A stretch of DNA of 64,000 bases from an uncultured Gammaproteobacteria bacterium (GCA_964537315.1 CAZIAP010000005.1:18669-82668), one strand, 5' to 3'. Positions 13,501-29,640 are shown, counted from the stretch's first letter. Numbers and translations are program-made. Notes: generated from the sequence alone by a model not told the origin.

Positions 13501-14457
13501 TTAAACTTTTGCGCACTCGTTATATGCCTGGACTTGTGAATTATACTGACTGCTAAGCTGTTTCATATTTTCGACCAGAGTATTAAACTCTCTGACTTTT
13601 GCGTTGTACTCATCAACTTTTCGGTTATATTCATCAGCTTCTTGTTGAGACTGTGGATTCTTATTGTTTTCTAGTTCTTGTTTCCTTCTATCAAGGTCTG
13701 CCTGAATAGCATCTGCCTGCGCAGACTTCTGGTCCAGTTGCACTTTTAGTCCACCGTCGATTACAGGACAAGCGCTTCGTGGTTTTCCGAAATGTTGTAC
13801 TGCCATCCAGGTTTTTCTCCCCTCATATATGCCTTGTCCAACGGCAATTCCAATTTCAGTGTATCCTGCTTTAAGCATATTTTCCCTGTGTCCGGGGCTG
13901 TCCATCCAAGCTTGGATGAGGTCCTGATCATCAGCAAAATTACCTAATGCCAAGTTTTCTCCGGTCATGATGTACTCATACCCAACACTGGATACAACAT
14001 CTGCAGGTTTTACACCTTGGGGGTTATCATGCGCAAAGTATTGCTGATCGAACATGTCTTCCAGTTTTTTCTGTGCAGATTGATTAAGTAGCGTACTCTC
14101 AGTAAGTTGCCCTACTCCGTGTTGCGCTCTCATGGTATTTGTCCACTTTATCGAACCTTCCCTCGTTAGATAAGGATCGGGTGCATTACGATCAGTTTTA
14201 AGTGGTTCAGGAGTAGTTACCTCTTGCGCAATTTCTCTGGCAATCGGAACATCCAGTAGTGCTTCTAGTAACTCTTCACTGACCAGAGAATCATAAATAC
14301 TTTTAACATAACCTCTCCCCCAAAAAATTCCTCCTGCTATAAGAAGTAATAATATTGGAATAACTAAAAATTTAAAAGAAATTGTATTAAATATATTTTT
14401 TTTCTGATTCTTTTTAATCGGCATATCTGTATTATAGCAATATGATTTTATATGCAA
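13501..14457 (-). CDS. Secreted CAP/SCP (PR-1-like) domain protein with C-terminal coiled coil
   Basis: Signal/TM N-terminus, GHRENML...YTEIGIAV CAP signature, Q/E-rich coiled-coil tail. Confidence 0.6.
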   Translation of the reverse strand: MHIKSYCYNTDMPIKKNQKKNIFNTISFKFLVIPILLLLIAGGIFWGRGYVKSIYDSLVSEELLEALLDVPIAREIAQEVTTPEPLKTDRNAPDPYLTREGSIKWTNTMRAQHGVGQLTESTLLNQSAQKKLEDMFDQQYFAHDNPQGVKPADVVSSVGYEYIMTGENLALGNFADDQDLIQAWMDSPGHRENMLKAGYTEIGIAVGQGIYEGRKTWMAVQHFGKPRSACPVIDGGLKVQLDQKSAQADAIQADLDRRKQELENNKNPQSQQEADEYNRKVDEYNAKVREFNTLVENMKQLSSQYNSQVQAYNECAKV

Positions 14458-14495
14458 TATAAAGTTACTTAATATACTTGCACTGTGTGAAGTAA

Positions 14496-15053
14496 TTGCT
14501 TATACTAAATCTAATGAATAAAACTTTGCTTTTTGTTTTGATAGGAGTAGCTATACTCGCCGCAGTAAGTGTTTTTCTTTTTTCTCGTTCCGGATCTGTA
14601 GATTTACATGGTTCTGCAAATAACAATGAAAATATTACAGCTGGAGAGTCTGGTTTATTTACGAGTGCATTTACCGGTTCCGGATCTGTGAAATGTGAAT
14701 ACACAGATGATCTGGCACAAGGCACAGCGTATGTTAAGGATGGTAAAGTACGTTTCACATCAGTTAACGAAGGTCAGTCTGCCAATATTATTATCGTTAA
14801 TAACATAATGTATATGTGGGGAGTTGGTGCTACAGAAGGCTTAGTAATAGACACAACACAGGCACAAGCAGATGGAGAAGATGCAGGTCTCAACTACTCT
14901 AGTCCTGAGGAAGTGAGAGCAGAGATTGAGAGCAAACAGCCTGAGTGTGTAAACGAAGAGATTGATGATGCGATGTTTGACCCTCCAACAGACGTAAACT
15001 TTACAGACTTTAGTCAGTTTATGCAAAACCTCCCTACAGTTCCCACGGAATAG
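14496..15053 (+). CDS. Secreted hypothetical protein
   Basis: Signal-like hydrophobic N-terminus. No recognisable domain. Confidence 0.45.
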   Translation: MLILNLMNKTLLFVLIGVAILAAVSVFLFSRSGSVDLHGSANNNENITAGESGLFTSAFTGSGSVKCEYTDDLAQGTAYVKDGKVRFTSVNEGQSANIIIVNNIMYMWGVGATEGLVIDTTQAQADGEDAGLNYSSPEEVRAEIESKQPECVNEEIDDAMFDPPTDVNFTDFSQFMQNLPTVPTE

Positions 15054-15162
15054 TAATTTCCTAGAGCACATTTCTTAACAACTAGCATTCTGTCTCACCG
15101 TTTAGTAAAATCACTCCATCTTGCAATCTTGGCAAGCGTACATTAACTAGATAGGAGACAAC

Positions 15163-15762
15163 GTGGATAACACGCTTGACTTGCAGGCATTGGAAGTGTT
15201 CAATGTCATCGCTAACGCGCCTGAAGGGTCCATTACCTCTGTTCTTTTGAACTATTCGGATACGAGAGTCTATGAGCTTCTGAGGAATCTTGAAATCAGC
15301 TTTGACACAAAGCTGGTTAGACGTGAAAGTTCCGGCTATGTACTCACCGACGCAGGTAGAGAAATTGCCGTATATACTGCTCAGATTTCTCGCCTTTGTG
15401 CAGCGATTCATAATCAGCTCAAAGACTTTCCTGGGTTAGTCTCAGGTACAGTGACTGTTGGATATGTATATCCAATTCCAGAGATGGTTCTCATGCCTTA
15501 CAAGGCAGAGTTTGAACATGAAAATCCAGCTGCAAATCTGCGCGCTAAGTACTTTAGTTCCGGAAAAGAGGCTGTCAGAGGATTGCTTAATGGTGAAATA
15601 ACGTTCGCATTTGTGAAAAACTCTGACGTTAATTCCAATATCCAGGGAATTCGTTTTCGATCCGAAAAAAATGAAGCGTACTGGTTGCTTTGGCGTAAAA
15701 ACAATCTGCTGGTTCAAGCAGAGATGGCGTTTTTACGTCTATTTGAAACTGAAGGCAGGTAG
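15163..15762 (+). CDS. Short LysR-like transcriptional regulator (GTG start)
   Basis: AGGAG RBS. N-terminus LQALEVFNVIANAPEGSITSV...LTDAGREI fits a LysR HTH. Only 199 aa, so the effector domain is truncated. Confidence 0.4.
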   Translation: MDNTLDLQALEVFNVIANAPEGSITSVLLNYSDTRVYELLRNLEISFDTKLVRRESSGYVLTDAGREIAVYTAQISRLCAAIHNQLKDFPGLVSGTVTVGYVYPIPEMVLMPYKAEFEHENPAANLRAKYFSSGKEAVRGLLNGEITFAFVKNSDVNSNIQGIRFRSEKNEAYWLLWRKNNLLVQAEMAFLRLFETEGR

Positions 15763-15786
15763 AATTTACACTTTAATATCTAGTTA

Positions 15787-15816
15787 CCCGGCGGCAATCC
15801 CGCCGGGTTTTTTTGT
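15787..15816 (+). terminator. Rho-independent terminator
   Basis: CCCGGCGGC-AAT-CCCGCCGGG followed by TTTTTTT. Confidence 0.75.
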
Positions 15817-15911
15817 GGCAAAATACTCGTCATAAATATCCCATAGTTTGATTTTTAAATAAAAATATGCTATTATTTGCGGGTTCTTTATTCTCATTTC
15901 ATCTTGAAAGG

Positions 15912-16319
15912 ATGAGGAAAATGTACCGAGACGAAAAGAAAATCGCTCGATATCAAATACTTGCCGATGGAATGTTGAATAACTGTAACGCTGAATACTT
16001 CGGTATTCAGATTATAACCAGTCGTGAAGATCCGACGCTGACTGGTGCAGAATATTTTCTTGGTGACATTGAGCTATTTTCTATGTTAGTCGGAATGTTG
16101 GAAGACATGGAAACGTTTGATGAACCGGTTGACGGTAGCTTGGCTCTATTCTTTGATGACGAGGGAAACTTGGTTGATCTTGGAAGAGTCGAATCCGAAT
16201 CAAATGGGTCACTTAATGTCACGATCAAGTTTAGAAACTATATAGTTTCTGTTCCGGTAGGAAAGGCAGTTGTAGAGGCGACGCATGAGTCGGTGCTCTA
16301 CATTGAAGACCCTTTTTAG
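15912..16319 (+). CDS. Hypothetical acidic protein
   Basis: ORF with a GGATGAGG RBS-like sequence. Start placed at MRKMYR; the upstream ATG in the ORF track is possible. Confidence 0.45.
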   Translation: MRKMYRDEKKIARYQILADGMLNNCNAEYFGIQIITSREDPTLTGAEYFLGDIELFSMLVGMLEDMETFDEPVDGSLALFFDDEGNLVDLGRVESESNGSLNVTIKFRNYIVSVPVGKAVVEATHESVLYIEDPF

Positions 16320-16337
16320 TAATCGGAGTACACACAC

Positions 16338-16366
16338 AGCCCCCGCATAGTCGGGGGCTTTTCTTT
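16338..16366 (+). terminator. Rho-independent terminator
   Basis: AGCCCCCG-CATAGT-CGGGGGCT followed by TTTCTTT. Confidence 0.65.
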
Positions 16367-16399
16367 AGTGAATTTTTCAAGTGATGGTATACTTAAAGT

Positions 16400-16669
16400 A
16401 TGAAGGATAAAAATATAAAAAAATTATGGTTTAAAAGAAAAAAATATGGTTGGGGATGGTATCCTGCAACCTGGCAAGGATGGGCAATTACTCTTGCCTA
16501 TGTAGGAGTGATAGTCTTTTTTGGACGTACAATTGATGACCAAACTCCATTAAACGAAGTTATATATTCATTTCTGATTCCTATTGCACTACTTACAGCA
16601 GCCTTCATTTATATTGCCTCACGCACTGGTGAATCTCCAAAATGGCAGTGGGGGAAGAAAAATTCATAA
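16400..16669 (+). CDS. Small membrane protein
   Basis: Two hydrophobic helices. Stop overlaps the xseA start (TAATG). Confidence 0.4.
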   Translation: MKDKNIKKLWFKRKKYGWGWYPATWQGWAITLAYVGVIVFFGRTIDDQTPLNEVIYSFLIPIALLTAAFIYIASRTGESPKWQWGKKNS

Positions 16670-17772
16670 TGGAATTCGATAGACCAATCCCCGTCTCAGT
16701 TTTTATCCAAGTATTAAATACTCAATTAAGTAATCTTCATGCAAAAATTATCGGAGAAGTGTCTGGATTGAAAAAAGCTTCAAGCGGACACGTCTATTTT
16801 GACCTGAAGGATTCCGAAGGAGTAATAAATTGCGTAGTCTGGAAATATAAATATCAGGTTTCAGGTATCAGCTTAGAAGAGGGTATGCAGATTGTGGCAA
16901 ACGGAAAACCGAACGTATATGCCCCCAATGGAAGACTTAGTTTTATTGCAGATACATTAGAGTATGCAGGTGAGGGCGAGTTGAAAAAAGCATACAATAT
17001 GCTTCGTAAAAAACTGGATGCAGAGGGACTATTTGCGCAGGAAAGGAAAAGAGAGCTTCCAAAATACGTTAAAAAAATCGGAGTAATTACCTCAAAACAT
17101 GGAGCAGTAATTCATGATTTTGAAAATAATCTGGGACGGTGGGGTTTCAAAATAAAATTTGTTGATTCAAGAGTAGAGGGAAAAGAATCAATTCATGATT
17201 TATTATCTTCTATATATACCTTGAGCAAGCAGGATATTGATGCCTTGGTTATCATGCGGGGTGGAGGATCACGTGAGTCCTTGGCTTCTTTTGATACAGA
17301 AGCAGTGGTCAGAGCAGTTGCAAATTTTCCGGTTCCGGTTGTGGCAGGGATCGGACACCATGAAGACGTTCCGCTTACCGTTCTTGCTGCAGACTTGGCA
17401 GTGTCTACTCCGACTGCGGCAGCTCATGTGTTTAATAAACCATGGGAAGAGTTGGTTTATACCGTAGAAAATTATGAGGGTCGAATTATTCAGCAGTTTG
17501 CGCATCGCCTCAGCTCAGTAAGTCAGTATATGCAGTCGTACAGCTCAGGTTTAGTCAGGTTATTTGAACAGCAGTTTAGAACTGCGTATACAAAATTAGA
17601 AAACTTTGAAAAGATTATTGCCAGTAACAATCCTGAGCGTCAATTGAAACTCGGGTACAGTATAGTACGAAAAGACGGACAGATTGTGAGGAATATAAAA
17701 AATGTTACAATAGGAGACGAACTTGAGACACGTGTTTCAGACGGAACAATAACGTCCAAGGTCACAAAGTAA
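16669..17772 (+). CDS. xseA: Exodeoxyribonuclease VII large subunit
   Basis: OB-fold N-terminus (VSVFIQVLN...GEVSG...HVYFDLKD) and conserved catalytic core. Confidence 0.8.
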   Translation: MEFDRPIPVSVFIQVLNTQLSNLHAKIIGEVSGLKKASSGHVYFDLKDSEGVINCVVWKYKYQVSGISLEEGMQIVANGKPNVYAPNGRLSFIADTLEYAGEGELKKAYNMLRKKLDAEGLFAQERKRELPKYVKKIGVITSKHGAVIHDFENNLGRWGFKIKFVDSRVEGKESIHDLLSSIYTLSKQDIDALVIMRGGGSRESLASFDTEAVVRAVANFPVPVVAGIGHHEDVPLTVLAADLAVSTPTAAAHVFNKPWEELVYTVENYEGRIIQQFAHRLSSVSQYMQSYSSGLVRLFEQQFRTAYTKLENFEKIIASNNPERQLKLGYSIVRKDGQIVRNIKNVTIGDELETRVSDGTITSKVTK

Positions 17773-17773
17773 T

Positions 17774-18064
17774 ATGAGCACTATAAATGTAGATGAAAAA
17801 TTAAAAAAACTCCAAGAAATAGCCGAGTGGTTTGACAACCAGGAAGAAGTCGATGTAGAACAGGGGTTAGAAAAAGTTAAAGAAGCATCAACTTTGATTG
17901 CAGAAAGCAAATCCAGACTTAAAGAGATTGAGAATGAGTTTGAAGAGATAAAAAAAGAAATAGATCCGGAACTTAAAATTGAAGAGAAGTTAGTAATCGA
18001 AAAAACTGAATCAACAAAGATTGAAGTAACCTCAGAAGAAGACTCCAATGATATGCCTTTTTAA
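17774..18064 (+). CDS. xseB: Exodeoxyribonuclease VII small subunit with acidic C-terminal extension
   Basis: LKKLQEIAEWFDNQEEVDVEQGLEKVKEA is XseB-like. Directly follows xseA. Confidence 0.7.
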   Translation: MSTINVDEKLKKLQEIAEWFDNQEEVDVEQGLEKVKEASTLIAESKSRLKEIENEFEEIKKEIDPELKIEEKLVIEKTESTKIEVTSEEDSNDMPF

Positions 18065-18084
18065 ATAACCTCTTCACACAAGAA

Positions 18085-18122
18085 GAAAAAAAGCCCCGGG
18101 TGAATCCCAGGGCTTGGAAAAA
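18085..18122. terminator. Bidirectional terminator, strongest for the minus-strand small gene
   Basis: AGCCCCGGG-TGAAT-CCCAGGGCT hairpin, with A7 on one side (T7 on the minus strand) and a T/A-rich tract on the other. Confidence 0.6.
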
Positions 18123-18133
18123 GAGCGTGTCGG

Positions 18134-18325
18134 TTATCTACGCCACACCAGGAGGATGATTATGATTACAAGCAGGCCTATCACCACCAAAGATAAATTG
18201 GAGGTGTCGAGCTTGTATCGCAATGCATCATCAATTTGATGAAATGGACGGTCAGATAACCACCAGCCAACGAGGAAACCCAATATCATCAGCAGTGCTG
18301 CAAACACACCGGAGTTAGCCCTCAT
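18134..18325 (-). CDS. Small membrane protein (2 TM helices)
   Basis: Hydrophobic 63-aa ORF with a strong terminator just downstream on the minus strand. Confidence 0.45.
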   Translation of the reverse strand: MRANSGVFAALLMILGFLVGWWLSDRPFHQIDDALRYKLDTSNLSLVVIGLLVIIIILLVWRR

Positions 18326-19954: not shown

Positions 19955-19975
19955 TCAGACTAGCGGCTTAAAGTG

Positions 19976-20788
19976 TTACTTATTAATTTTTTCTCTTAAT
20001 TTCCGTAGTATATCCATTTTTCTGACAATATCATTTAGTAAAGTTCTTTCAATGCCTGCAAAAATATCATAATTTTCATTTTTTGCTTTTTTAAGTCTGG
20101 TGCGCCAGCTATACCATTCTGATACTCTTAATTCTTGATATGCATTATTTTGATCTTCAATTTGTTTATTGATCTCTATAATAATAGCTTCTAGTTCTTC
20201 AATAGAGTGTTCTGTATCTTCAGATATTATTGATTCTTTTTCTAACTGCTTTAATTTGTCTAAGTTGTGCTCTTCGTAAGCTCTGTTAATTTGTTTCATC
20301 ATTTCTTCCCGATGTTTTTTTTCATCCATATCTTGGACTAGATCTGGGTGAAACTTTGCAACAAGTTTTTTCCATATTTTTCTTAGCTCTTCGGTTGCGT
20401 ACTTGGCTTTTGATCCGGAACGTTCTTTGAATATCTGCTCTTCTTGACGCATCTGTTCTCTTTCTTGTTCGTATTGACGCTGTTTTGCATAATACGTATC
20501 GTTGAGTTGTTCAACTGCGTCTTTATAACTGAGTCCTTGCTCGATGAGCTGAATAACATTACGCAGATATATAATTTCTAAGTCCAATTGGTTATCTTTG
20601 AGATATAAACTACCCACTCTTACGTCATATTCTTGTTTTACCATATCCAGCTCTACTCGCAGCATCTCTGTTTTAGTTACTATTTTGGTTAGCAGAATAC
20701 GCTTTTTACGGATGATGTTCTTAAGTTTTCTTTTTTTTATTTCTTCTTCATTTGAAAGAAGAATTGGTGAAAGAGTATTTTTTCCCAT
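19976..20788 (-). CDS. J-domain (DnaJ-like) coiled-coil protein
   Basis: KLVAKFHPDLVQD...MMKQINRAYEE contains the HPD J-domain signature. Extensive E/K/Q coiled coil. Confidence 0.65.
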   Translation of the reverse strand: MGKNTLSPILLSNEEEIKKRKLKNIIRKKRILLTKIVTKTEMLRVELDMVKQEYDVRVGSLYLKDNQLDLEIIYLRNVIQLIEQGLSYKDAVEQLNDTYYAKQRQYEQEREQMRQEEQIFKERSGSKAKYATEELRKIWKKLVAKFHPDLVQDMDEKKHREEMMKQINRAYEEHNLDKLKQLEKESIISEDTEHSIEELEAIIIEINKQIEDQNNAYQELRVSEWYSWRTRLKKAKNENYDIFAGIERTLLNDIVRKMDILRKLREKINK

Positions 20789-20909: not shown

Positions 20910-22394
20910 GTGAATAAAATGAATAGATTAGTTGATTATCTAAATCCATTTGCGCGCATAGGAAAAAGAAGTTATTCCTTTGTCTTCCCGTTCTTTTTTA
21001 CACTTTTGGTTGTTGTTGTAATTGAATTGGTAGGATATGTCATTCTGAAAGATCCGGACAGAACTTCTATTTACGCAATCATTGCAACAATTGCAGCTAT
21101 CATTTACTGCTCGTTTCGTGATGGTTTGAAAGGAGGGCTAACCGCAACAGTTGGCACATTACTGTATTACTTTCATATTATATATACACGTAGCTATCAA
21201 GGTGAGAGATTAGAATCAGCTTTGATAATGGTTGCTCTATTAAGTTCCATTAATTTTTCTGTAGCGATGGTAATCGGATGGTTGAGGCAGACAATCGATA
21301 AACTAATCGAAAGAGAAATAAACGAAAAGCAAAGACTGGAAGCGGTTATTCAGCAAATTCCTGCGGGAGTAATAATTGCGGACAAAGAGGGAAATATCGT
21401 GCAAAGTAATGAACGTTTCAATAAAATTTTTAATAACAAGGGTCGGTTAGACATAAAAGTCGGAAAGGTTACTGCGCCAAACGCAACATATAAAGGCAAG
21501 CCAGTTAAGCCAAAACAATGGCCATTAGCACAAGCTTTATTCAATGGTCGACAAGTATTAGGTAAAGAATATATATTTCGTAAAAAAAGAGTGAACCAGG
21601 CAATACAAATTAGTGCTGCGCCAATCAAAGGTAGAGATGGGAATATCCTAGCCGCAGTGTGTATCATGACTGATGTGACTGCCCAAAGAGAGTTGGAACG
21701 GCAAAAAGATGAGTTTATAGGGATTGCAAGTCATGAGTTAAAAACTCCTGTTACGAGTATCAAAGCATACACGCAGGTACTAAAACATAATTTTAGTAAA
21801 AGCGGAGACAAAGATTCGGTTAACCAGCTTGAAAAGATGGATGCTCAGTTAAATAAACTGACTGACTTAATTGGTGACTTATTAGATGTAACAAAAATTG
21901 AATCAGGTCAAATTCAGTTCAATGAAAGCTTGTTTGACTTTGACAAAGTAGTTAAAGAACAAGTGTCTCAGATGCAATTAACCACTCAACGGCATACCCT
22001 ATCGTTAAGATGCAATACTAATGCAAAAATTTATGGCGATAGTGAGAGGGTAGGTCAGGTGCTTACGAATCTTATCTCAAATGCGATTAAATACTCTCCA
22101 CACGCAAAAAAAATAATTATTGAAGGAAAGAGGGTAAAAAATAATGTTGAATTATCTGTCAGGGATTTTGGTATCGGAATGTCAAAAAGCAATAGTGGAA
22201 AAGTGTTTGAAAGATTTTATAGAATAAGCGGTCCTAATAACCAAACTTTTCCTGGACTTGGACTGGGGTTATACATATCATCTGAAATAATCAAAAGAAT
22301 GGGTGGAAAAATTTGGGTTGAAAGTGAGGAAGGTAAAGGATCCACGTTTTTCTTTTCGTTGCCGATTAAGGATAATAATAAGAAGAAAGCTTAA
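20910..22394 (+). CDS. Sensor histidine kinase (TM, PAS, HisKA, HATPase_c)
   Basis: Four N-terminal TM helices, PAS-like region, H-box GIASHELKTPVTSI, N/G boxes (NLISNAIKYS, DFGIGM, GLGLGL). Confidence 0.8.
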   Translation: MNKMNRLVDYLNPFARIGKRSYSFVFPFFFTLLVVVVIELVGYVILKDPDRTSIYAIIATIAAIIYCSFRDGLKGGLTATVGTLLYYFHIIYTRSYQGERLESALIMVALLSSINFSVAMVIGWLRQTIDKLIEREINEKQRLEAVIQQIPAGVIIADKEGNIVQSNERFNKIFNNKGRLDIKVGKVTAPNATYKGKPVKPKQWPLAQALFNGRQVLGKEYIFRKKRVNQAIQISAAPIKGRDGNILAAVCIMTDVTAQRELERQKDEFIGIASHELKTPVTSIKAYTQVLKHNFSKSGDKDSVNQLEKMDAQLNKLTDLIGDLLDVTKIESGQIQFNESLFDFDKVVKEQVSQMQLTTQRHTLSLRCNTNAKIYGDSERVGQVLTNLISNAIKYSPHAKKIIIEGKRVKNNVELSVRDFGIGMSKSNSGKVFERFYRISGPNNQTFPGLGLGLYISSEIIKRMGGKIWVESEEGKGSTFFFSLPIKDNNKKKA

Positions 22395-22467: not shown

Positions 22468-22851
22468 ATGAAGTTTGAAGACGGAAAAAAACATGATAAG
22501 AAAAAAATACTTGTAGCTGACGATGATCAAGGCATTGTAGATGCAATAAAATTAATGCTGGAGACTGTTGGATACGATGTGGCTACTACTGTTGACGGAG
22601 AGACAGTGCTTAAGCTGAAAGAAGAATTACCGGATCTTCTCTTGTTAGATATTTGGATGTCAGGTCAGGATGGGCGAGACATCTGCAGATATCTGAAAGG
22701 TAGAGAGGACACAAAACGTATTCCGGTCATTATGATTTCTGCAAATAAAGACACAGAGACCATTGCAAAACAAGTCGGTGCAGATGATTTTGTTTCTAAA
22801 CCTTTTGAGATGGATGAACTATTGGAAAAGATAGAGAGATTGGTTAATTGA
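22468..22851 (+). CDS. Single-domain response regulator (receiver only)
   Basis: KILVADDDQ...LLLLDIWMSGQDG...ISANKD with a conserved Asp pocket. No output domain. Confidence 0.8.
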   Translation: MKFEDGKKHDKKKILVADDDQGIVDAIKLMLETVGYDVATTVDGETVLKLKEELPDLLLLDIWMSGQDGRDICRYLKGREDTKRIPVIMISANKDTETIAKQVGADDFVSKPFEMDELLEKIERLVN

Positions 22852-22901
22852 TAGTCAGTATATTAATTATTAACGCAATTTAACTCGTTAATAATAAATT
22901 T

Positions 22902-23564
22902 CTATTTCGATTGATAGTTTGTAAATTCTTGGGCACAGCTGTTTCCATGACATGCGACACAGCTATATTTAAAGTCTCCTATAATTGCGTCGTGGTGAAT
23001 CTTATCATTTACCCACCACTTAAAAGCAGATTCTTCAGTACTCATGGAAATAATATTTTCTGTATTCCAGTAATCGAGATTTCTTGATTGTAAACCAGCG
23101 TGTAAGTTACCGTTTTTAACCTCATCAGATATCTCAGGCGCTCTAGAATGAGCAAGTTCACAGGTTTTTTGATCTTTTGTAAATGGTTGCAATCCTCTTT
23201 CTTTTCTGTACTCGTTTGACATATTAAACAGTTTTTCCGGATCAAGTCCTCCTTTGTTTGAAATGGACTTAGTCTCGGGTGCTGAAGTTGGTTTAGGTGT
23301 TGCTGTTGTAGATGGAGATTTAGTTAAGACTGGTTCAGAAGCCTGAGTAGATATAGCAGGCTTTTTTTCTGGCTCTCCCACGTCCGTTGTAAGAATGGGA
23401 AGCTGGGTATAAGTCTCTTTGCTGTCTGAGGAATTCACATTTTCTGTATCAGTCTTTTGCTGTGCATGAACGTGAGCAACTGTTACTAAAAACAGAAAGA
23501 ATCCAAGAATGACAAACGCGCTCTGAATTGTTCGGGAATTCATAGGCCTAATTAGTATAGACAC
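22902..23564 (-). CDS. Secreted protein with Pro/Thr/Ser-rich linker and C-terminal Cys-containing CAP-like domain
   Basis: Signal peptide, TKSPSTTATPKPTSAPETKS linker, C-terminal ...WWVNDKIHHDAIIGDFKYSCVACHGNSCAQ. Paralogous in layout to 25238..25963. Confidence 0.5.
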   Translation of the reverse strand: MSILIRPMNSRTIQSAFVILGFFLFLVTVAHVHAQQKTDTENVNSSDSKETYTQLPILTTDVGEPEKKPAISTQASEPVLTKSPSTTATPKPTSAPETKSISNKGGLDPEKLFNMSNEYRKERGLQPFTKDQKTCELAHSRAPEISDEVKNGNLHAGLQSRNLDYWNTENIISMSTEESAFKWWVNDKIHHDAIIGDFKYSCVACHGNSCAQEFTNYQSK

Positions 23565-23885
23565 AGCGAGTGCGAATATGCAATTGTCTGATTTTTGTCC
23601 ACACCCAGTCCGTATAGCGTCAAGCGCACTGATTTAGTATCAAGTATGATCAATTTAGGAAGTAGGTGAGTATACATGACAGAGCATATATACAGACATA
23701 ACTTACAAGAATATCTAACATTTTATTTTGAAAAATGGCCACAGATAGAAAAATCCATAAATGAGTCATTAAATGACAGGATCAAATCAGAGTTTGTGCT
23801 AGCAGACCAAAGTTTGAATATAGAGAGTAAAGAATGAAAATGTGCCTGCTTTGTATTCTAGTAGAAAACGATGTAGAATGAGTTT

Positions 23886-24479: not shown

Positions 24480-25053
24480 TATTATCGGGCTTCCTGCCAG
24501 TGGAAAAACTACACTTGCAGCAAATCTAACAAAAACTTACTCTCTCCCCTGCCTAAATCTAGATACACATATTTTTAAACTGGTTAAAAAAAAGAGAAGA
24601 GTCCGTGTTTCTTCAGATACCTATTTAAAGACGATCAAGCGGTTTATGAAAAGAAAAAATTGGATAATTGAAGGTATTTATACATTTGATGAAGTAATAA
24701 AAGAAGCGGACATTATTATATTTGTAGAACGTTCATTCTCAAAACTAATTTATTTACAATGGAAAAGATTTTTTACTAACAAAAGTCAGAGATTGGAATA
24801 TGGCTTTATAAGCAATCTTAAACTTTCATGGTTTATATATAACCTATACTTTAATAAAGTGGGTGTAGCTGTATATGACAACCAAAAACCTCTAACTATA
24901 TCTGATATACATACAAAATTATCAAAATACAAAAAGAAGGTGCAAATAATGCGTACAGGGTCTGAAATGAATATGTTCGTAGCAAGTTTGAATGCTAAAA
25001 AGTTATTTTTTATCTGTTGTTTTCTCTGCTATGGACATCTGTTGAATTTCTAG
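24469..25053 (+). CDS. P-loop NTPase, FlaR/topology-modulation-protein-like (adenylate/deoxynucleoside kinase-like), GTG start
   Basis: IIGLPASGKTTLA Walker A, WIIEGIYTFDEV...ADIIIFVERSF like FlaR. Overlaps the previous gene by 11 nt. Confidence 0.55.
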   Translation: MKINIIGLPASGKTTLAANLTKTYSLPCLNLDTHIFKLVKKKRRVRVSSDTYLKTIKRFMKRKNWIIEGIYTFDEVIKEADIIIFVERSFSKLIYLQWKRFFTNKSQRLEYGFISNLKLSWFIYNLYFNKVGVAVYDNQKPLTISDIHTKLSKYKKKVQIMRTGSEMNMFVASLNAKKLFFICCFLCYGHLLNF

Positions 25054-25237
25054 GTGCAATCATTAAGATATGAGCATAAATTAGCATCGAGTAAATATTG
25101 TAGCTAGACATGCGTAGCTTACGCTTGAATGAATAAGTATTGAGAACAAGAAATGAATATTGGACGTAATAATCGAGCGAAATGATCAAGTAGTTAAATA
25201 ATGGAGTATAAAAATTGCTTGAAGTGTTTAAAACAGG

Positions 25238-25963
25238 TTATGGCCTCCACCCTTCATATGCGTAGTAGTTACCATACGCTTCTACGCAAACGTAAGGAGT
25301 ATCCTGTCTCATGTTTTCAGCATGACCTGGGGAGTTTATCCACATAGAAACTACATTTTTGTAATTTGATGTCATCGCTAGATTCTCAGTGATTCTAGAA
25401 TAAGAAGGGTAAGGTAGAGTTTTATTTCTAATCCGATTTGAAAATCCGTCGTGGCTAAAATCAGTTGAGATTTCTTTGGCTCTAACTTTGGCAAACTTGC
25501 AAGTATACGGATCAGTAACAACTTCTGATAAACCTTTCGATGCGCGATATTTATTTATCTCCTTCATTATATATATCTGTACTTGATTAGTTTGTGTATC
25601 AGATGGTTTTGTTGCGGTAGGTGTTGGCTTATCATTTTTCGGACTAATTACTGTTGGAGTTGGCGTATTATTTTTTGTGGGTGTAGGAGTCAAAGTGGGT
25701 GTCAGGCTAACCGATGTTGGCTCTCTATCTGGTGAAATGGTACTAGATGGTGTTGGTCGAACTTCTTCTATATTAATTTTTATTTCTTTATTTATATTAA
25801 TACGATGTTCTTTAAATTTTTGTTTGAAGGTCTCGAATTGGGCTTTTGTTTTTTCACTAATCTGTTGCTTTAGATCGTCGTGAGTAACAGCTTGAGTGTT
25901 ATATGGAAAAATTAGAGAAAAAGTTATTACAATTGCGAGGACAATTGTGACGGGCAGTTTCAT
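25238..25963 (-). CDS. Secreted CAP/SCP-domain protein with Pro/Thr-rich linker
   Basis: Signal peptide, PTLTPTPTKNNTPTPTVISPKNDKPTPTATKP linker, ...MWINSPGHAENM CAP signature. Confidence 0.55.
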   Translation of the reverse strand: MKLPVTIVLAIVITFSLIFPYNTQAVTHDDLKQQISEKTKAQFETFKQKFKEHRININKEIKINIEEVRPTPSSTISPDREPTSVSLTPTLTPTPTKNNTPTPTVISPKNDKPTPTATKPSDTQTNQVQIYIMKEINKYRASKGLSEVVTDPYTCKFAKVRAKEISTDFSHDGFSNRIRNKTLPYPSYSRITENLAMTSNYKNVVSMWINSPGHAENMRQDTPYVCVEAYGNYYAYEGWRP

Positions 25964-26226
25964 GAACGTCTAATCTACCGCAGTAGGCTTTAATTGTCAA
26001 ATCCTATAACACAAGATATAAGCTGACTTAACTCAAGATATCAATCAACCAATTGTAAGAGAATTGTTCAAGATAAGTTTTGTCTTAATTCTGTCAGAAA
26101 ACAGTCCGTACTCCGTCAAGCAGTAAAGCCCAAGCTTGAGTAATATAAGGTTATGATATTCTACAAAGAAGTTTCAGGTTACAACTTACCTAACTCTCCT
26201 CCGTAGGAAATACACGCAGCAATTCC

Positions 26227-26283
26227 CTAGAAAGTATTAATTAGAAACTAGAAATTAGATATTAGAAATTAGATATTAGATAT
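26227..26283. repeat. Tandem 14-mer TAGAAATTAGATAT (about 2.3 copies), TTAGAAATTAG family
   Basis: ttagaaactagaaattagatattagaaattagatattagatatg. Confidence 0.6.
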
Positions 26284-26305
26284 GTATCCTCTTAAAAATT
26301 AAAAT

Positions 26306-26773
26306 TTATTCTGTTTGTTCTGTTGGAGTTGGTGAAGCAGTAGTCCTTGTAGGTGAAGGTGTTACTGTTTCTGATAGTTGTATCCTAATCGCTTCATATC
26401 CTCCCTCGCTTGGTTGCACAATTGCTTGTATCTGCATCCCTTGCCGCAAACTATTCCTGGAGATTTCAGTACCGTTTCTGTTAGTAATTGCTGTGTCCTC
26501 AGTTATATAAATCAACATTGCTGATCCGTTTTGTTCAATTGTGGCGGTTAACGAGTTTTTATATGTAACCGGAGTATCTGAAATTGTCAGTATTTCTCCA
26601 TCTATTACTTGCTCTGCTGGTGTAGGAGACGCGGTAGGTTCAACCGGTTGCGTAGGAAATGCAACGGTCTGATTTTCCTCTCTTTGAGGTTGACTGGCAA
26701 TCAATAAAATACCAAATAATAGAATAATTACCAACGCAACCACACTTGCGATTACCATCCGTGATGATCTCAT
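26306..26773 (-). CDS. Membrane-anchored protein with Pro/Thr-rich segments
   Basis: N-terminal TM helix, PTQPVEPTASPTPAEQ and C-terminal TPSPTRTTASPTPTEQ. Confidence 0.45.
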   Translation of the reverse strand: MRSSRMVIASVVALVIILLFGILLIASQPQREENQTVAFPTQPVEPTASPTPAEQVIDGEILTISDTPVTYKNSLTATIEQNGSAMLIYITEDTAITNRNGTEISRNSLRQGMQIQAIVQPSEGGYEAIRIQLSETVTPSPTRTTASPTPTEQTE

Positions 26774-26955
26774 ATCTCGTAATTATTACATATATTTGCA
26801 AAAAATATGTAACAAAACAGATAAATATGACTATTAATTACTCCTAAACCATTAATACCCAAAACAGTATACCGTATACAGAATACTGTATACACGATAC
26901 TCAATACTTCATACCGACTACTGAATATTCGATTGCTGAATCCAGACTGCTGATT

Positions 26956-27840
26956 GTGTATAATTATGGCATTATGCCAGTGGATAAATATTCCGCGGTT
27001 TGGGTGTCACATTCTTCCATAGGTGATTTTCTGAAATGTCCCAGATCATATTTTCTTAAAAACGTATATAAAAACCCGGATACCGGACACAAGATTCAGT
27101 TAGTTACTCCTCAGATGTCCTTGGGTCAGGCGGTTCATGATACTTTAGAATCGCTATCAGTATTACCTGCAGACAAAAGGTTTCTTGAATCTTTACAAGA
27201 TCGATTTGAGTTGGCGTGGAAAAAAGTCGAGGGTAAAAAAGGTGGGTTTACTAGTGAAGAAGCAGAGGTAGTTTACAAAGACAGGGGTAAAAATATGATT
27301 GAGAGAGTTTGGAGAAACCCCGGACCACTGAAAAACTTAGCTGTAAAGATAAAGATGGACCTTCCCCATTATTGGTTGTCAGAGGAAGATGGGATAATTC
27401 TCTGCGGTTTAATTGATTGGTTAGAGTATTTCCAAGACACTGATAGTGTACATATTATAGATTTTAAGACAAGCAAATCTGACGAAAATAAAGAGAGTTT
27501 ACAACTTCCGATATATAAACTATTAGTGGAGAACTGTCAAACCCGTCCGCTAATTAAAGCAAGCTATTGGTATCTGGAAAGAAACGATGAACCAACCGAA
27601 GTAGAACTTCCTGGTAGTGAAGAATCTCATGAAAAAATAATTAAAATCTCTCGTCAGATTAAGGTAGCCAGACAGTTATCGAGATTTAAGTGCAGTCACG
27701 AAACAGGTTGTTATGCGTGTGAACCGTATGAAGCTATTATTAGAGGTGAGGCAGAATATCTGGGAGTAGATGAGTATAACAAGGATAAATATCTTCTAAA
27801 GACTGACACTTTAGAGAATATAGAAAGCGAAGTTTTATAA
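26956..27840 (+). CDS. Cas4-like / RecB-family PD-(D/E)XK nuclease with 4-Cys cluster
   Basis: N-terminal Cys (FLKCPRSYF). Motif II/III IIDFKTSK...LQLPIYKLL. C-terminal C-x5-C-x2-C (CSHETGCYAC). Possible start at the Met 18 nt downstream. Confidence 0.6.
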   Translation: MYNYGIMPVDKYSAVWVSHSSIGDFLKCPRSYFLKNVYKNPDTGHKIQLVTPQMSLGQAVHDTLESLSVLPADKRFLESLQDRFELAWKKVEGKKGGFTSEEAEVVYKDRGKNMIERVWRNPGPLKNLAVKIKMDLPHYWLSEEDGIILCGLIDWLEYFQDTDSVHIIDFKTSKSDENKESLQLPIYKLLVENCQTRPLIKASYWYLERNDEPTEVELPGSEESHEKIIKISRQIKVARQLSRFKCSHETGCYACEPYEAIIRGEAEYLGVDEYNKDKYLLKTDTLENIESEVL

Positions 27841-27847
27841 AGTTTTT

Positions 27848-28351
27848 ATGTTGCGAAACATACTGGTTATTACCGTTCTCTTATTAATAGGTAGTGCGGT
27901 GGCTTTCATGTTATTCAGAGAACAAGAAGGAACCTCTATTGAGTTTGCGGACTCTCTACAGAGTACATTTGGAGACGAAGCAGAGTACGTCAATAAACAG
28001 GCCAATTTTTCTATCAAATATCCAAATTCATGGAACCTAGAAGTAAAAACGTTTGATGCTGAAGATGATACGAGAGGGGTTAGATTACGTGGGAGAACAG
28101 GATATATAGATCTTTACTGGGCAGTTGAACATGAAAAAGGAGGATGTCAGCAAAGCTTCTCTCAATTACAGTTAGCAGAGGAGTCAATTGAAGTCTGTAA
28201 CTTTAAGCAAGATGATGACTCAGAAATTTGGAATCAGATTGTAAGAGACCGTGGAGAAATGATTTTTTGGTCAAATGCATATGCAGCTTCGCCTTCTGCT
28301 CAGACTCGCCAGGCAATACTTGATGTATTTTCTACACTCACCTTTTTTTAG
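27848..28351 (+). CDS. Secreted hypothetical protein
   Basis: Signal/TM N-terminus. No recognisable domain. Confidence 0.45.
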   Translation: MLRNILVITVLLLIGSAVAFMLFREQEGTSIEFADSLQSTFGDEAEYVNKQANFSIKYPNSWNLEVKTFDAEDDTRGVRLRGRTGYIDLYWAVEHEKGGCQQSFSQLQLAEESIEVCNFKQDDDSEIWNQIVRDRGEMIFWSNAYAASPSAQTRQAILDVFSTLTFF

Positions 28352-28399
28352 TTCTGAGCGGACTTGACAAATACTGAAAAATTCAGGTAACGTATATCT

Positions 28400-29143
28400 A
28401 TGCGAATAAAAATTGCAGCCTTGACTTCGGTTCTCTGTCTTTTAGTTACTGCCTCAGTTGTAATGGCGCAAGAGACAGGAGAGTCTCCTGATTCCAACCA
28501 ACAAGATGTAGTAACCACTCCAGTTGAAGGGAGTTTGAGATTAGGAAATGTACGTAAAGCACAAGTAAATGATACGGCAGAAGCAAAGATTTCGCATAGG
28601 GAAGAGATTCAAAAAAAACGTATGGAGTCTCTGAATGCCGCAGAAACCAAGCGGAACGAGTTTAAGCAGCAGTTGGCAGGTATCCGTGATAATCAGAAAA
28701 CAGCCACTGTTCAGAGATTAGATACACGTTTTGTCAGTATTAATAATTTGATTACAGATCGTTGGGTAACCGCGCTTGAAACAATGTCTGGTATGGTTGA
28801 TAGAGCAAGCTCTGAGGCAGCAGGCCTTGAAGAATCAGGAGTAAATACAAACTTACTTGATGCTGCAGTTACTCGTGCTCAGACTGCTATCACTACAGCA
28901 CAGACATCAGTAACTACACAAGCTGGAAAAGTTTACGTTATTAATATAACTACTGAGGCAGGTTTGCGAGCAAATGTAGGAGCGACAGTTTCTCAATTTA
29001 GGACAGACATTAGAAACACTCACAGTTCAGTAGTTGCTGCAAAACAAGCAGTAATGCAAGTTGTAAGAGCATTAGCTACAGCAAAGTTATCAGGTACGAC
29101 ACCGTCACCTAAAGCAACTGAAAGCGCTGTAATATCAGAATAA
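28400..29143 (+). CDS. Secreted Ala/Thr/Gln-rich hypothetical protein
   Basis: Signal peptide. Low-complexity, coiled-coil-prone sequence. Confidence 0.45.
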   Translation: MRIKIAALTSVLCLLVTASVVMAQETGESPDSNQQDVVTTPVEGSLRLGNVRKAQVNDTAEAKISHREEIQKKRMESLNAAETKRNEFKQQLAGIRDNQKTATVQRLDTRFVSINNLITDRWVTALETMSGMVDRASSEAAGLEESGVNTNLLDAAVTRAQTAITTAQTSVTTQAGKVYVINITTEAGLRANVGATVSQFRTDIRNTHSSVVAAKQAVMQVVRALATAKLSGTTPSPKATESAVISE

Positions 29144-29145
29144 AT

Positions 29146-29640
29146 ATGGATAATAGAACCGACAACCCATTAACATCTAGTTTGCCTGAACAGGAAAAAG
29201 AAAGAAGCTCTATTCCTGAAGGTGAAAATAGAGATATTAATACTCCAGGGGCTTCAGACGCTAGCTCAGCAGGTACTTATCCTCCGGCATTTAATTCTAC
29301 ACCCCCACCGCCTCCACCAACTGAAAATAGTAACCCTCCCCATAGCGCTAATTCCAACACACCGGATGATGGGGGTAAAAAGAGTTTGGGAGTGATGATT
29401 GGCGCATTACTGGTGTTAATGGTTGTGTTCTTAGGATTAATATTCTACTTCGTATTGAGACAGCCTCAGGAACCTGAGCAGCCTGTTGAGCAAATGCCGA
29501 TTGAAAATACATTACCATCACCTACCGAAGTGCCTTTGTCTCCAACTCCTGAGCTTACAGAAGAAGCAGTTGAAGAAATAGAGATTGGAAGTCCTGAAGC
29601 AGATTTATCCCCGATTGAAACAGATTTGGAGCAATTATAA
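29146..29640 (+). CDS. Pro-rich single-pass membrane protein
   Basis: Poly-Pro PPPPPPTENSNPP, TM helix, acidic C-terminus. Confidence 0.45.
   Translation: MDNRTDNPLTSSLPEQEKERSSIPEGENRDINTPGASDASSAGTYPPAFNSTPPPPPPTENSNPPHSANSNTPDDGGKKSLGVMIGALLVLMVVFLGLIFYFVLRQPQEPEQPVEQMPIENTLPSPTEVPLSPTPELTEEAVEEIEIGSPEADLSPIETDLEQL

Follow-up and report, generated by a model that had tools for sequence, protein, structure and literature searches.

Between positions 13501 and 29640 of the window (the whole 64-kb stretch of DNA that was analysed) lie three minus-strand genes, here called A, B and C, for proteins with a CAP (PR-1-like) domain. They raise the question of whether this region is one coherent cell-surface locus, as the initial annotation proposed, or a set of separate envelope genes. 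On balance, the region as a whole is probably best explained by three anciently separated exported CAP proteins with a role in the cell envelope, with joint regulation of B and C. The window belongs to a Microgenomates-type Patescibacteria (CPR) genome, in which the earlier assumption of a reduced-genome host proves correct: homologues of A, B and C carry the names Levybacteria, Amesbacteria, Curtissbacteria, Giovannonibacteria and 'Patescibacteria group'. The three CAP proteins are members of already catalogued families and ordinary for Patescibacteria. The unusual part is a putative regulatory DNA element common to the upstream regions of B and C; this element of about 40 bp, conserved in a related species, is what is new here.

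All three open reading frames score above the gathering threshold of the Pfam CAP family (PF00188, 21.1 bits), with 59.1 bits for A, 23.9 bits for B and 37.8 bits for C. The CAP assignment originally made from sequence stands for each protein. The three are less uniform than the like-built paralogues described there: B and C (31% identity, E 2e-14) and A and C (23% identity, E 2e-6) can be aligned pairwise, but A and B cannot be aligned by BLAST, and the architectures differ. In profile–profile comparison (hhalign), C matches family A with 95% probability and B matches A with 63% probability (E 7e-5). A, B and C are three anciently separated subfamilies. AlphaFold2 models of A and of the C-terminal domain of B, searched with Foldseek, show the CAP fold and match the solved CAP structures 4ifa, 4h0a, 4d53, GAPR-1 and PR-1. 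Profile searches against the PDB return 4ifa, 4h0a and 4d53, and with the family C profile no PDB sequence reaches E ≤ 0.01. The His/Glu/His residues are invariant in A (H132/E156/H179) and C (H171/E193/H214) and conserved in B (H148/E162/H183); in profile alignments they align with each other and with the motifs of 4ifa. Judged by these alignments, all three proteins retain the His/Glu/His set that lines the CAP cavity in solved family members.

Protein A does not follow the proposed plan of signal peptide, Pro/Thr-rich linker and CAP domain. It consists instead of a membrane anchor, a CAP domain and a previously overlooked helical hairpin:

13501–14424, minus strand: CAP protein A, 307 aa from the ATG at 14424 (Pfam, public gene calls)
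14284–14376, minus strand: N-terminal transmembrane helix, aa 17–47 (hydropathy 2.42, AlphaFold2 helix 17–47)
13780–14223, minus strand: CAP alpha-beta-alpha domain, aa 68–215 (Pfam, alignment, AlphaFold2, PDB profile matches, Foldseek)
13504–13770, minus strand: C-terminal helical hairpin, aa 219–307 (alignment of 88 homologues, AlphaFold2)

The reading frame extends to a TTG at 14457, but the internal ATG at 14424 is the likely true start, and public gene calls contain the exact 307-aa protein. Hydropathy and the A-x-A rule were the sole criteria for signal peptides and topology. The transmembrane helix of A, which follows a Lys-rich N-terminus, looks uncleaved (the sequence of A shows no A-x-A motif for cleavage) and is predicted to be oriented N-in with the CAP domain outside. 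A also lacks a PT-rich linker (P+T 8%). Its AlphaFold2 model (pLDDT 90.6) matches 4ifa (E 4e-8), BB0689, SAV1118 and GAPR-1 in Foldseek. E156 is part of a GENLA motif and H179 of SPGH..N. The hairpin, a module of about 90 aa with helices 224–253 and 260–306, matches no Pfam family. Its two cysteines, C219 and C304, are invariant in the 88-homologue alignment, which suggests a C219–C304 disulfide, and asparagines with heptad spacing (N267, N274, N281, N295 and N302) lie beside Tyr/Val core positions. Among 323 cluster representatives (E ≤ 1e-3), hairpins of this type are almost exclusively C-terminal, in proteins of about 285–345 aa. Family A comprises 2929 homologues, most of about 285–290 aa and aligned over about 93% of their length, under the names Giovannonibacteria, Curtissbacteria and Patescibacteria; anchor, CAP domain and two-Cys hairpin form a fixed architecture across Patescibacteria. 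This architecture has probably been noted before. The CPR-enriched transmembrane CAP family 3.6k.fam08817 (Meheust et al., bioRxiv 10.1101/335083) would correspond to family A by the description in one passage of that source; the same passage does not mention the hairpin, the invariant Cys pair or the heptad Asn.

Proteins B and C do have the signal peptide and PT-rich linker that were proposed for all three:

22902–23543, minus strand: CAP protein B, 213 aa from the ATG at 23543 (Pfam, public gene calls)
23463–23543, minus strand: signal peptide of B, aa 1–27 (hydropathy, A-x-A rule)
23244–23462, minus strand: disordered P/T/S-rich linker of B, aa 28–100 (AlphaFold2 pLDDT 52–69)
22905–23243, minus strand: divergent CAP domain of B, aa 101–213, with four conserved Cys (AlphaFold2 pLDDT 95–98)
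25238–25963, minus strand: CAP protein C, 241 aa (Pfam)
25889–25963, minus strand: signal peptide of C, about aa 1–25 (hydropathy, A-x-A rule)
25574–25888, minus strand: linker of C, aa 26–130, Lys-rich, then PT-rich (sequence)
25241–25573, minus strand: CAP domain of C, aa 131–241, with invariant C155 and C226 (Pfam, family alignment)

The B frame reaches a GTG at 23564, but its likely true start is the internal ATG at 23543. Both proteins are of the Sec-secreted type, with predicted signal peptides and a disordered Pro/Thr-rich spacer that bears a C-terminal CAP domain with conserved cysteines. Family B is small (48 homologues, one of them named Levybacteria CAP domain-containing protein) and, besides its His/Glu/His residues, conserves C128, C195, C198, C203 and A27, the predicted cleavage site. 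Its domain matches 4h0a (2.5e-5) and 4ifa (3.2e-5) in Foldseek. Family C has at least 300 homologues, with CAP domains 60–75% identical, variable PT linkers and 53–181 aa preceding the CAP domain. The exported nature of all three proteins, as first proposed, is predicted because of their N-terminal hydrophobic segments, the conserved A27 of family B and the paired conserved cysteines.

The PT linkers had been attributed to short DNA tandem repeats that can expand or contract. Neither TRF nor a separate repeat search finds DNA tandem repeats in the linkers of B or C, and repeat-driven linker variation is not supported. Degenerate DNA repeats do occur in one of three further Pro/Thr-rich genes, each of which encodes one hydrophobic helix and P/T-rich low-complexity sequence, in agreement with the membrane or secreted PT-repeat proteins listed earlier (all by hydropathy and composition):

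9531–9962, minus strand: small membrane protein with a transmembrane helix, an acidic run and an (A/S)PTNTP-rich tail
26306–26773, minus strand: small N-terminally anchored protein with PT-rich ends
29146–29640, plus strand: small protein, Pro-rich on the N-terminal side of a central transmembrane helix, acidic and Pro-rich on the C-terminal side

Only 9531–9962 has a P/T region built from degenerate DNA repeats (TRF periods of 18 and 30 nt with 78–85% matches; copies 66–75% identical in the separate search). None of the three matches a Pfam family. A 156-aa gene takes the position of 26306–26773 upstream of C in the related species (contigs L131–L133), and syntenic counterparts of 29146–29640 encode 159–178 aa in L002 and L131.

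The proposal of one coherent cell-surface locus fails on its gene content, in that housekeeping genes separate CAP genes of three old subfamilies with unlike architectures. The 16-kb stretch is interrupted by genes for RadC, XseAB, an NT5C nucleotidase, a P-loop kinase and a PD-(D/E)XK nuclease, and by a LysR-like and a J-domain gene. Because these genes intervene and gene contexts vary between relatives, A, B and C are independent transcription units and form no operon. Genes for exported proteins are more frequent in the region (12 of 27) than elsewhere in the window (10 of 62; Fisher p 0.007), mostly because the rest of the window holds a ribosomal-protein operon. Wall genes occur near CAP homologues in four of eight contexts (SLT-like genes and Acyl_transf_3 in L005 and L006, Peptidase_S11 in L008, a class A PBP and YkuD in L137), which is not beyond chance in a 1-Mb genome by our estimate of about 25% per context.

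The two-component pair between the CAP genes is real, as Pfam and hydropathy confirm:

20910–22394, plus strand: sensor histidine kinase (Pfam, NCBIfam, hydropathy)
22468–22851, plus strand: single-domain response regulator, 127 aa (Pfam Response_reg, 89 bits)

The kinase has three to four membrane helices with short loops, followed by cytoplasmic PAS, HisKA (His275) and HATPase_c domains; hydropathy reveals no extracytoplasmic domain. Its best partial matches in Pfam and NCBIfam are PnpS, WalK and PhoR, all below cut-offs. The response regulator keeps the acidic pocket (D18–20, D61) as well as S91 and K111. It is the only PhoB-like match among all ORFs of the window, but the match spans the receiver domain only; the protein contains no DNA-binding output domain and would itself be unable to bind DNA.

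Most plausibly, by analogy with studied relatives, A, B and C are metal- or ligand-binding envelope proteins associated with the cell wall. A would sit on the outer face of the membrane, flexible spacers would hold B and C out through or on the wall, and each CAP cavity might bind a divalent cation together with a ligand that is peptide-like or peptidoglycan; such binding would imply envelope maintenance or surface-protein handling, as for DalA and PrgA. The best sequence and structure matches of A and B are YkwD-like CAP proteins (4IFA of B. anthracis, 4H0A or SAV1118 of S. aureus, 4D53 or BB0689 of Borrelia), which are likewise exported and share the alpha-beta-alpha fold and the motifs YF.H, GEN and (S)PGH..N. 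A peptide occupies the CAP cavity of SAV1118. The solved examples lack the C-terminal hairpin of A and the PT spacers of B and C, 4IFA and 4H0A have an extra N-terminal domain unlike A, B and C, and the NCBIfam YkwD subfamily model gives 88.9, 18.2 and 28.0 bits for A, B and C, below its cut-off of 171. DalA, a divisome-associated lipoprotein of Rhodobacter sphaeroides, is an envelope protein too and, among the close bacterial relatives found, the only one for which a biochemical property has been demonstrated: it binds peptidoglycan non-covalently, localises to the septum and co-precipitates with L,D-transpeptidases (PMC10470522). Its model (NCBIfam NF052539) matches A over 104 residues (E 5.7e-12), but A, B and C score far below the equivalog cut-off of 200 and, unlike this outer-membrane lipoprotein of a diderm, lack a lipobox. 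PrgA, an enterococcal surface-exclusion protein (PDB 6Z9K/6Z9L) involved in surface-protein processing, also joins a CAP domain to an antiparallel two-helix coiled coil, and its His/Glu/Asp/His cavity binds Zn through the two tetrad histidines (bioRxiv 10.1101/2020.06.18.156562). The PrgA coiled coil measures about 40 nm, with parts on either side of the CAP domain, whereas the A hairpin spans about 45 residues and is C-terminal; PrgA is LPXTG-anchored and plasmid-encoded, whereas A has an N-terminal transmembrane anchor and a putatively Cys-stapled hairpin. In an enterococcus, each of the three methods applied to extract surface proteins yielded an SCP-like protein.

The region could alternatively be one host- or partner-interaction toolkit of repeat-variable CAP adhesins on PT stalks, under embedded two-component control. 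Export of the CAP proteins, a higher density of exported proteins here than elsewhere in the window and the wide linker-length variation between homologues are consistent with this, as are the growth of Patescibacteria on host cells (PMC10633639) and the contribution of bb0689, which encodes a bacterial CAP protein, to Borrelia virulence (PMC11784157). Such a toolkit is nevertheless unlikely, given CAP linkers devoid of tandem DNA repeats, the housekeeping genes in between, the unlike architectures, a family A without conserved neighbourhood in three distant genomes, a response regulator without output domain and an enrichment that stems from the ribosomal-protein operon on the other side of the comparison. 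Neither adhesin-type domains nor wall anchors turned up; BB0689 is the only one with a virulence link among the experimentally studied bacterial CAP proteins found (PMC11784157), and the others point elsewhere (DalA, PMC10470522; PrgA, bioRxiv 10.1101/2020.06.18.156562). It is very improbable that the CAP proteins act like yeast Pry1 and plant PR-1, binding and scavenging lipids or molecules resembling sterols for a bacterium unable to make its membrane lipids. Lipid biosynthesis is generally missing from CPR bacteria, Foldseek matches the fold to Pry1, PR-1, GAPR-1 and tablysin-15, and family A is nearly universal in CPR bacteria, judging by its homologues and the published description; yet the eukaryotic matches are weak (TM 0.26–0.31 normalised to the query, 10–22% identity), the nearest structures belong to bacterial YkwD-like domains without known lipid binding, and no sterol-binding loop of the eukaryotic CAP kind was recognised in A, B or C.

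A catalytic role, with the CAP domains as metal-inhibited peptidases that process surface proteins, has been proposed for PrgA (Ser476 beside a tetrad His) and Tex31. The CAP domain of PrgA, which sits on a two-helix coiled coil, is required for PrgB processing (bioRxiv 10.1101/2020.06.18.156562), and A likewise joins a CAP domain to a helical hairpin; PrgA appears at Foldseek rank 21 for A, with 264 aligned columns but an rmsd of 33 Å. The SPGH motif puts a Ser near the second His in A and C, but three residues upstream, whereas the Ser of PrgA adjoins its His (S476–H477), and family B (NDKIHH) has no such Ser. C matches the SEC10/PgrA model weakly (28.5 bits, E 9e-7), far under the cut-off of 70; an LPXTG anchor is absent, CAP-domain proteolysis is not firmly established (bioRxiv 10.1101/2020.06.18.156562), and we consider peptidase activity quite improbable. 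It is equally improbable that B, and perhaps C, serves the kinase next door from outside the membrane, as an accessory protein or a ligand-binding partner; that kinase exposes only short loops there and has no external sensor domain of its own. Full-length kinase orthologues (42% and 39% identity) adjoin B homologues in L005 and L006, and an orthologue lies 0.3–2 kb from B homologues in three of the four lineages examined, despite rearrangements. However, orientation and intervening genes change each time, the kinase is missing beside the B homologue in L002–L004, and the pattern in this sample of four lineages would follow just as well from leftover synteny between related Microgenomates.

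The reading preferred here, of separate exported envelope proteins with B and C under joint control, draws on the element found upstream of both genes:

23585–23625, minus strand: upstream element of B, four GAC cores in exact 11-bp phase
26081–26121, minus strand: upstream element of C, with the four repeats as in B, some 120–160 nt before the start codon

The four GAC-core repeats lie one helical turn apart. In B the pattern is GCTTGACG-N3-TACGGAC-N8-GACA-N7-GACA, and the end of the element is the start of a promoter-like site, TTGCAT-18-TATACT; in C such a site, CTGACA-16-TATCTT, takes its first hexamer from the third repeat (CTGACA). The exact motif has two sites only in the 64 kb (0.2 matches expected even at up to three mismatches), and the four-GAC pattern with zero mismatches likewise occurs in the window at B and C only. 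The B element is conserved in congener contigs L133 and L134 and the C element in L131–L133, although the proteins of this sister species have diverged to 62–66% identity. More distant B homologues lack the element upstream, and it shows no RNA structure signal and matches no Rfam family. Since it is kept in a related species, B and C are probably co-regulated; the shared element could also be simply a duplicated promoter. B and C might be turned on together by a DNA-binding regulator of the OmpR/PhoB type whose gene lies beyond the window and which may receive its signal from the nearby WalK/PhoR-like kinase. Operators of this family include Pho boxes, the TT(A/T/C)ACA repeats of B. subtilis PhoP and the TGTWAH-N5-TGTWAH of WalR, which the element resembles in its direct hexamer-like repeats, 11 bp apart, at or just upstream of the -35 hexamer. 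Unlike in those systems, the window encodes no DNA-binding OmpR-type regulator that could be the cognate winged-helix protein, regulator binding to the element is putative, and its GAC(A/G/T) core matches no named OmpR/PhoB consensus exactly. Read as TGACAG, the third repeat of the C element is complementary to the core of the Pho box, CTGTCA.

The CAP assignment of the three minus-strand proteins A (13501–14424), B (22902–23543) and C (25238–25963) is solid, as Pfam scores, pairwise and profile alignments and matches of predicted to solved structures all lead to it. The CAP domains named in the initial annotation are recovered by PF00188, whose curated gathering score of 21.1 bits is passed by A (13501–14457; 59.1 bits), B (22902–23564; 23.9 bits) and C (25238–25963; 37.8 bits). 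Public gene calls start A at ATG 14424 (307 aa) and B at ATG 23543 (213 aa). The three proteins are also related to each other, as had been claimed, but BLAST connects only two of the three pairs: B and C (31% identity across 101 residues, E 2e-14) and, weakly, A and C (23%, E 2e-6). A and B give no BLAST alignment, and it is their family profiles that align, with the register correct (63% probability, E 7e-5); the profiles of C and A align with 95% probability (hhalign).

AlphaFold2 models were built with family alignments for A (mean pLDDT 90.6) and B (pLDDT 95–98 in the C-terminal domain), and C is tied to the fold by its BLAST match to B and its hhalign match to A. As expected from the initial annotation, the top Foldseek matches of both models are solved CAP domains (B. 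anthracis 4IFA, S. aureus SAV1118, Borrelia BB0689, GAPR-1 and PR-1). The model of A matches 4ifa (E 4e-8) and 4d53 (TM 0.82, normalised to the target), and that of B matches 4h0a (2.5e-5) and 4ifa (3.2e-5). A mutually aligned His/Glu/His set, the counterpart of the YF.H, GEN and PGH..N motifs in 4IFA, is kept in A (H132/E156/H179), B (H148/E162/H183) and C (H171/E193/H214) and is invariant in the three family alignments. Conservation of the fourth, acidic cavity position is not uniform across the families.

A signal peptide, a PT linker and a CAP domain had been ascribed to all three proteins, a description that fits B and C but not A. The N-termini of B and C consist of a short positively charged stretch, a hydrophobic core and a predicted A-x-A-type site, with predicted cleavage at VHA|QQ in B and TQA|VT in C. 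Next comes a low-complexity P/T/S-rich spacer (P+T+S up to 60–67% per 30-aa window), which AlphaFold2 leaves disordered, and the CAP domain stands last. In A, the P+T content is 8%, and the Lys-rich N-terminus is followed by a long transmembrane helix (residues 17–47) with no obvious cleavage site. A juxtamembrane segment (residues 48–67), partly helical in the model (residues 50–57), connects this helix to the CAP domain (residues 68–215).

The C-terminal part of A, overlooked in the initial annotation, is a helical hairpin (helices 224–253 and 260–306 in the AlphaFold2 model). An alignment of 88 homologues reveals two invariant cysteines, C219 and C304, and asparagines at heptad spacing (N267, N274, N281, N295 and N302) beside Tyr/Phe and Val core positions. 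Searched for by itself, the hairpin is found in 323 cluster representatives (E<=1e-3), and nearly all of the best 150 listed among these are proteins of about 285–345 aa with the match at the C-terminus, so the architecture is fixed. Pfam searches with the hairpin or the juxtamembrane segment return sub-threshold coiled-coil noise alone and no family for the hairpin.

Each of the three proteins stands for an old subfamily of its own. For A, 2929 homologues are detectable in many CPR lineages, with a typical identity of 45–50% across about 93% of the length. At least 300 homologues belong to family C; their CAP domains are 60–75% identical and their PT spacers vary widely (53–181 aa before the CAP domain). 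Family B is the smallest, with 48 homologues, most of which carry no precomputed Pfam hit. The families also differ in their cysteines, which are C155 and C226 in C and C128, C195, C198 and C203 in B; the CAP domain of A has none.

A, B and C all stay below the curated cut-offs of the YkwD, DalA and PrgA families. Scores against YkwD (TIGR02909, cut-off 171 bits) are 88.9 bits for A, 18.2 for B and 28.0 for C. The NCBIfam model of DalA, a CAP lipoprotein of Rhodobacter sphaeroides (NF052539, equivalog cut-off 200 bits), cross-matches A at 45.8 bits and C at 18.1 bits and gives no hit to B; the N-terminal hydrophobic regions of A, B and C contain no cysteine that could form a lipobox. The enterococcal surface-exclusion family SEC10/PrgA (TIGR04320, cut-off 70 bits) is matched by C at 28.5 and B at 12.4 bits, and an LPXTG motif is present in none of the sequences. 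The PrgA family has a long two-helix stalk, whereas the hairpin of A is only about 90 residues long.

The bacterial relatives for which experimental data were found are the following. The septum-enriched DalA attaches non-covalently to peptidoglycan, and L,D-transpeptidases co-precipitate with it (PMC10470522). PrgA carries its CAP domain on a coiled-coil stalk and has a Zn-binding cavity, in which the histidines equivalent to those of A, B and C coordinate the metal, and a role in PrgB processing has been proposed for it; the cavity of SAV1118 holds a bound peptide (bioRxiv 10.1101/2020.06.18.156562). An enterococcal SCP-like protein was recovered with all three surface-protein extraction methods used. 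The Borrelia CAP protein BB0689 contributes to virulence by a mechanism that is not known (PMC11784157). On our best reading, A, B and C would be envelope proteins, A at the membrane surface and B and C on flexible spacers, with a CAP cavity that would bind a cation and a peptide-like or wall ligand. Peptidoglycan genes lie near CAP homologues in four of the eight contexts examined, which is not clearly above chance. The host interaction proposed in the initial annotation is possible, with nothing here that speaks for it specifically.

Meheust et al. (bioRxiv 10.1101/335083) report one membrane-anchored CAP form as belonging to a small number of protein families that are almost universal in the CPR and almost confined to it, and this form is very likely family A. 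Among the texts searched, no other links CAP domains to Patescibacteria; a paper on Saccharibacteria genetics makes no mention of CAP proteins. CAP-domain proteins are common in bacteria, and a function is known for hardly any of them. Homologues are already annotated as "CAP domain-containing protein" (NCBI) or "uncharacterized protein YkwD" (JGI), and nothing in the present results is mechanistically surprising. What is new is the definition of the hairpin module of family A, an upstream element shared by B and C, and a recurrent proximity of a sensor kinase gene to B-family genes. The fixed architecture of family A offers experimental handles in the few cultivable Patescibacteria, namely the transmembrane anchor, the His/Glu/His cavity and the hairpin with its Cys pair and heptad Asn.

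The view that the CAP genes form one cell-surface locus does not hold. They are separated by genes for RadC, a Gmad2/Germane protein, a LysR-like protein, XseA/XseB, a J-domain protein, an NT5C nucleotidase, a P-loop kinase and a PD-(D/E)XK nuclease, and they run opposite to most of these intervening genes. No neighbourhood is conserved around family A in three distant CPR genomes, where its neighbours are unrelated, or around two distant homologues of C beyond the sister species. Exported proteins are more frequent in the region (12/27) than in the rest of the window (10/62, p 0.007), a comparison dominated by the ribosomal-protein operon.

B and C are connected in a different way. Reading of the upstream DNA reveals a common block, GCTTGACG-N3-TACGGAC-N8-GACA-N7-GACA, at two sites identified by comparison of the upstream DNA:

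23585–23625, minus strand, shared element of B
26081–26121, minus strand, shared element of C

The 16-base core is exact at both sites, and no third site exists in the 64 kb at up to three mismatches (0.2 expected). The four GAC cores are spaced by exactly 11 bp, an arrangement matched without mismatch in the window only at these two sites. In the sister species, the element is kept 5' of both genes, and the whole upstream regions are 87–90% identical to those of the window, compared to 66% for protein B and 62% for protein C, so the upstream DNA is more conserved than the proteins. Neutral retention since duplication cannot account for the shared block, given that B and C themselves are only 31% identical. 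A structured RNA was rejected: the region has no Rfam match, folding is neither stable nor common to the two sites (z −1.1 to +1.5), and the phasing of the repeats is that of a DNA site. OmpR/PhoB-family sites usually consist of direct repeats in this layout, four of them at intervals of one helical turn, next to or overlapping a −35-like hexamer. Here, ~11-bp direct repeats lie at or just 5' of the −35 at both sites, forming a putative operator: the element of B abuts TTGCAT-18-TATACT, and that of C overlaps CTGACA-16-TATCTT. From this conserved, phased element at −35-like hexamers we infer that B and C are co-regulated. It would be a rare regulon candidate in these genomes, where transcriptional control is essentially unstudied.

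The element is absent 5' of more distant B homologues. A scan of genome contigs with TTGACGNNNTACGGACTG (15 specified bases, 596 Gb) returned chance matches only, in unrelated phyla, and a 19-base version gave two matches in metagenome contigs, both high-GC and unrelated, and no further instances of the element. The non-coding spans conserved against sister-species contigs L133/L131 are 23544–23730 and 25964–26220. Upstream of C, conservation extends over about 250 nt, far past the four repeats, and further functional features may therefore lie in this non-coding DNA.

Near-consensus sigma-70-type promoters are also found just 8–12 nt 5' of the start codons of C (TTGACA-17-TAGATT, 25972–26000) and B (TTGCAT-18-TATACT, about 23554–23583). 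The latter is conserved in distant homologues on contigs L002 and L006 (about 7961–7990 in each). This placement suggests leaderless or very short-leader mRNAs for B and C; the alternative is a distal promoter within the element that they share.

The two-component pair between the CAP genes is as initially described. The kinase (20910–22394, plus strand) has three to four membrane helices with short loops, followed by PAS, HisKA (54 bits; H-box His275) and HATPase_c (99.5 bits) domains, and its best NCBIfam matches, PnpS, WalK and PhoR, are all sub-threshold. The regulator (22468–22851, plus strand; Response_reg, 89 bits) consists of a receiver domain alone, 127 aa long, with its acidic pocket intact and with D61, S91 and K111 in place, the phospho-acceptor Asp among them. 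Having no output (DNA-binding) domain, it cannot be the binder of the shared element, and no ORF of the window matches the OmpR/PhoB winged-helix DNA-binding domain. Two other lineages have a full-length kinase orthologue (42% and 39% identity) at a distance of 0.3–2 kb from the B homologue, in differing orientations; in one of these lineages, a membrane acyltransferase gene stands between the two genes and SLT-like genes are nearby. In a fourth lineage (L002/L004), the B homologue adjoins the J-domain gene as in the window, and the kinase and regulator are missing. A functional tie and residual synteny would fit the proximity of kinase and B equally well.

In a bolder picture, which we consider improbable, B and C would constitute a small secreted-CAP regulon. 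An OmpR-type regulator under the control of the neighbouring WalK/PhoR-like membrane-embedded kinase would drive it through the four repeats, with B possibly the outside partner of this kinase. Separately, the CPR-wide A would be a core envelope factor of ultrasmall bacteria. It might serve, for instance, as a scaffold for peptidoglycan handling, in which the Cys-stapled hairpin with its Asn ladder would form dimers or bind a periodic ligand.

The further PT-repeat proteins (9531–9962, 26306–26773 and 29146–29640) are indeed small single-TM proteins of P/T-rich low complexity. They match no Pfam family, and syntenic counterparts in relatives suggest that they are real genes. Expandable DNA tandem repeats, proposed to encode the PT linkers, are not what encodes those of B and C: neither TRF at a permissive score nor a seed-based repeat search finds any there. 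Only 9531–9962 has 18/30-nt repeats in its coding region, with copies 66–85% identical. Contingency surface genes of the simple-sequence-repeat type were therefore rejected: near-perfect tandem repeats are absent from the B and C linkers, and the copies in 9531–9962 are too diverged.

Intergenic 7-bp tandem-repeat arrays occur at 9467–9524, 26228–26283, 26864–26927, 29643–29802, 37397–37428, 41976–42085, 46340–46408 and 57622–57691. By cyclic permutation they form two families, (C/A)AGTAT(A/T) and AATTAG(A/G), and there is an additional perfect (CGGTTCA)x5 array; a strict scan finds five arrays of 7-bp repeats, compared to none in shuffled sequence. In gaps of the ribosomal-protein operon, a (YCTAATT)n arm opposes an (AATTAGR)n arm, and the facing arms fold into imperfect hairpins (z −2.1 to −2.9) just 5' of start codons. 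The array 5' of C has a single orientation; at the corresponding place, the sister species carries an ordinary inverted repeat of terminator-like form.

The initial assumption of a reduced genome is reasonable, since public homologues of the window proteins are named Candidatus Levybacteria, Amesbacteria, Curtissbacteria, Giovannonibacteria or "Patescibacteria group". The G+C content of the window is 35–45%, the ORF list places a ribosomal-protein gene cluster at about 40–58 kb, and the same DNA is found in a Logan assembly (SRR7082966) and in an 85,943-bp NCBI contig.

Several neighbouring genes deserve mention. An anchored protein with Gmad2 (Ig-like) and Germane (GerMN) domains (12587–13462, plus strand) is convergent with A. 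Many small exported neighbours contain exactly two cysteines (14496–15053, 27848–28351, 11211–11801 and 10194–11117). The last of these (plus strand, 307 aa) begins with a TM helix, continues with a Pro/Glu-rich spacer and ends in a domain of ~120 aa that holds both cysteines; the protein matches nothing in Pfam, NCBIfam or PDB sequences, nor does this domain alone in PDB and Pfam. The J-domain match of the 270-aa coiled-coil protein at 19976–20788 (minus strand) is weak and partial. The short LysR-like protein (15163–15762, plus strand, 199 aa), with a sub-threshold HTH_1 match and partial substrate-domain matches, may be truncated or divergent. A 53-aa ORF (23676–23837, plus strand) with no family assignment separates B from the NT5C gene and is divergent from B; public assemblies list it as a gene, and the sister species has a conserved counterpart of 57 aa.
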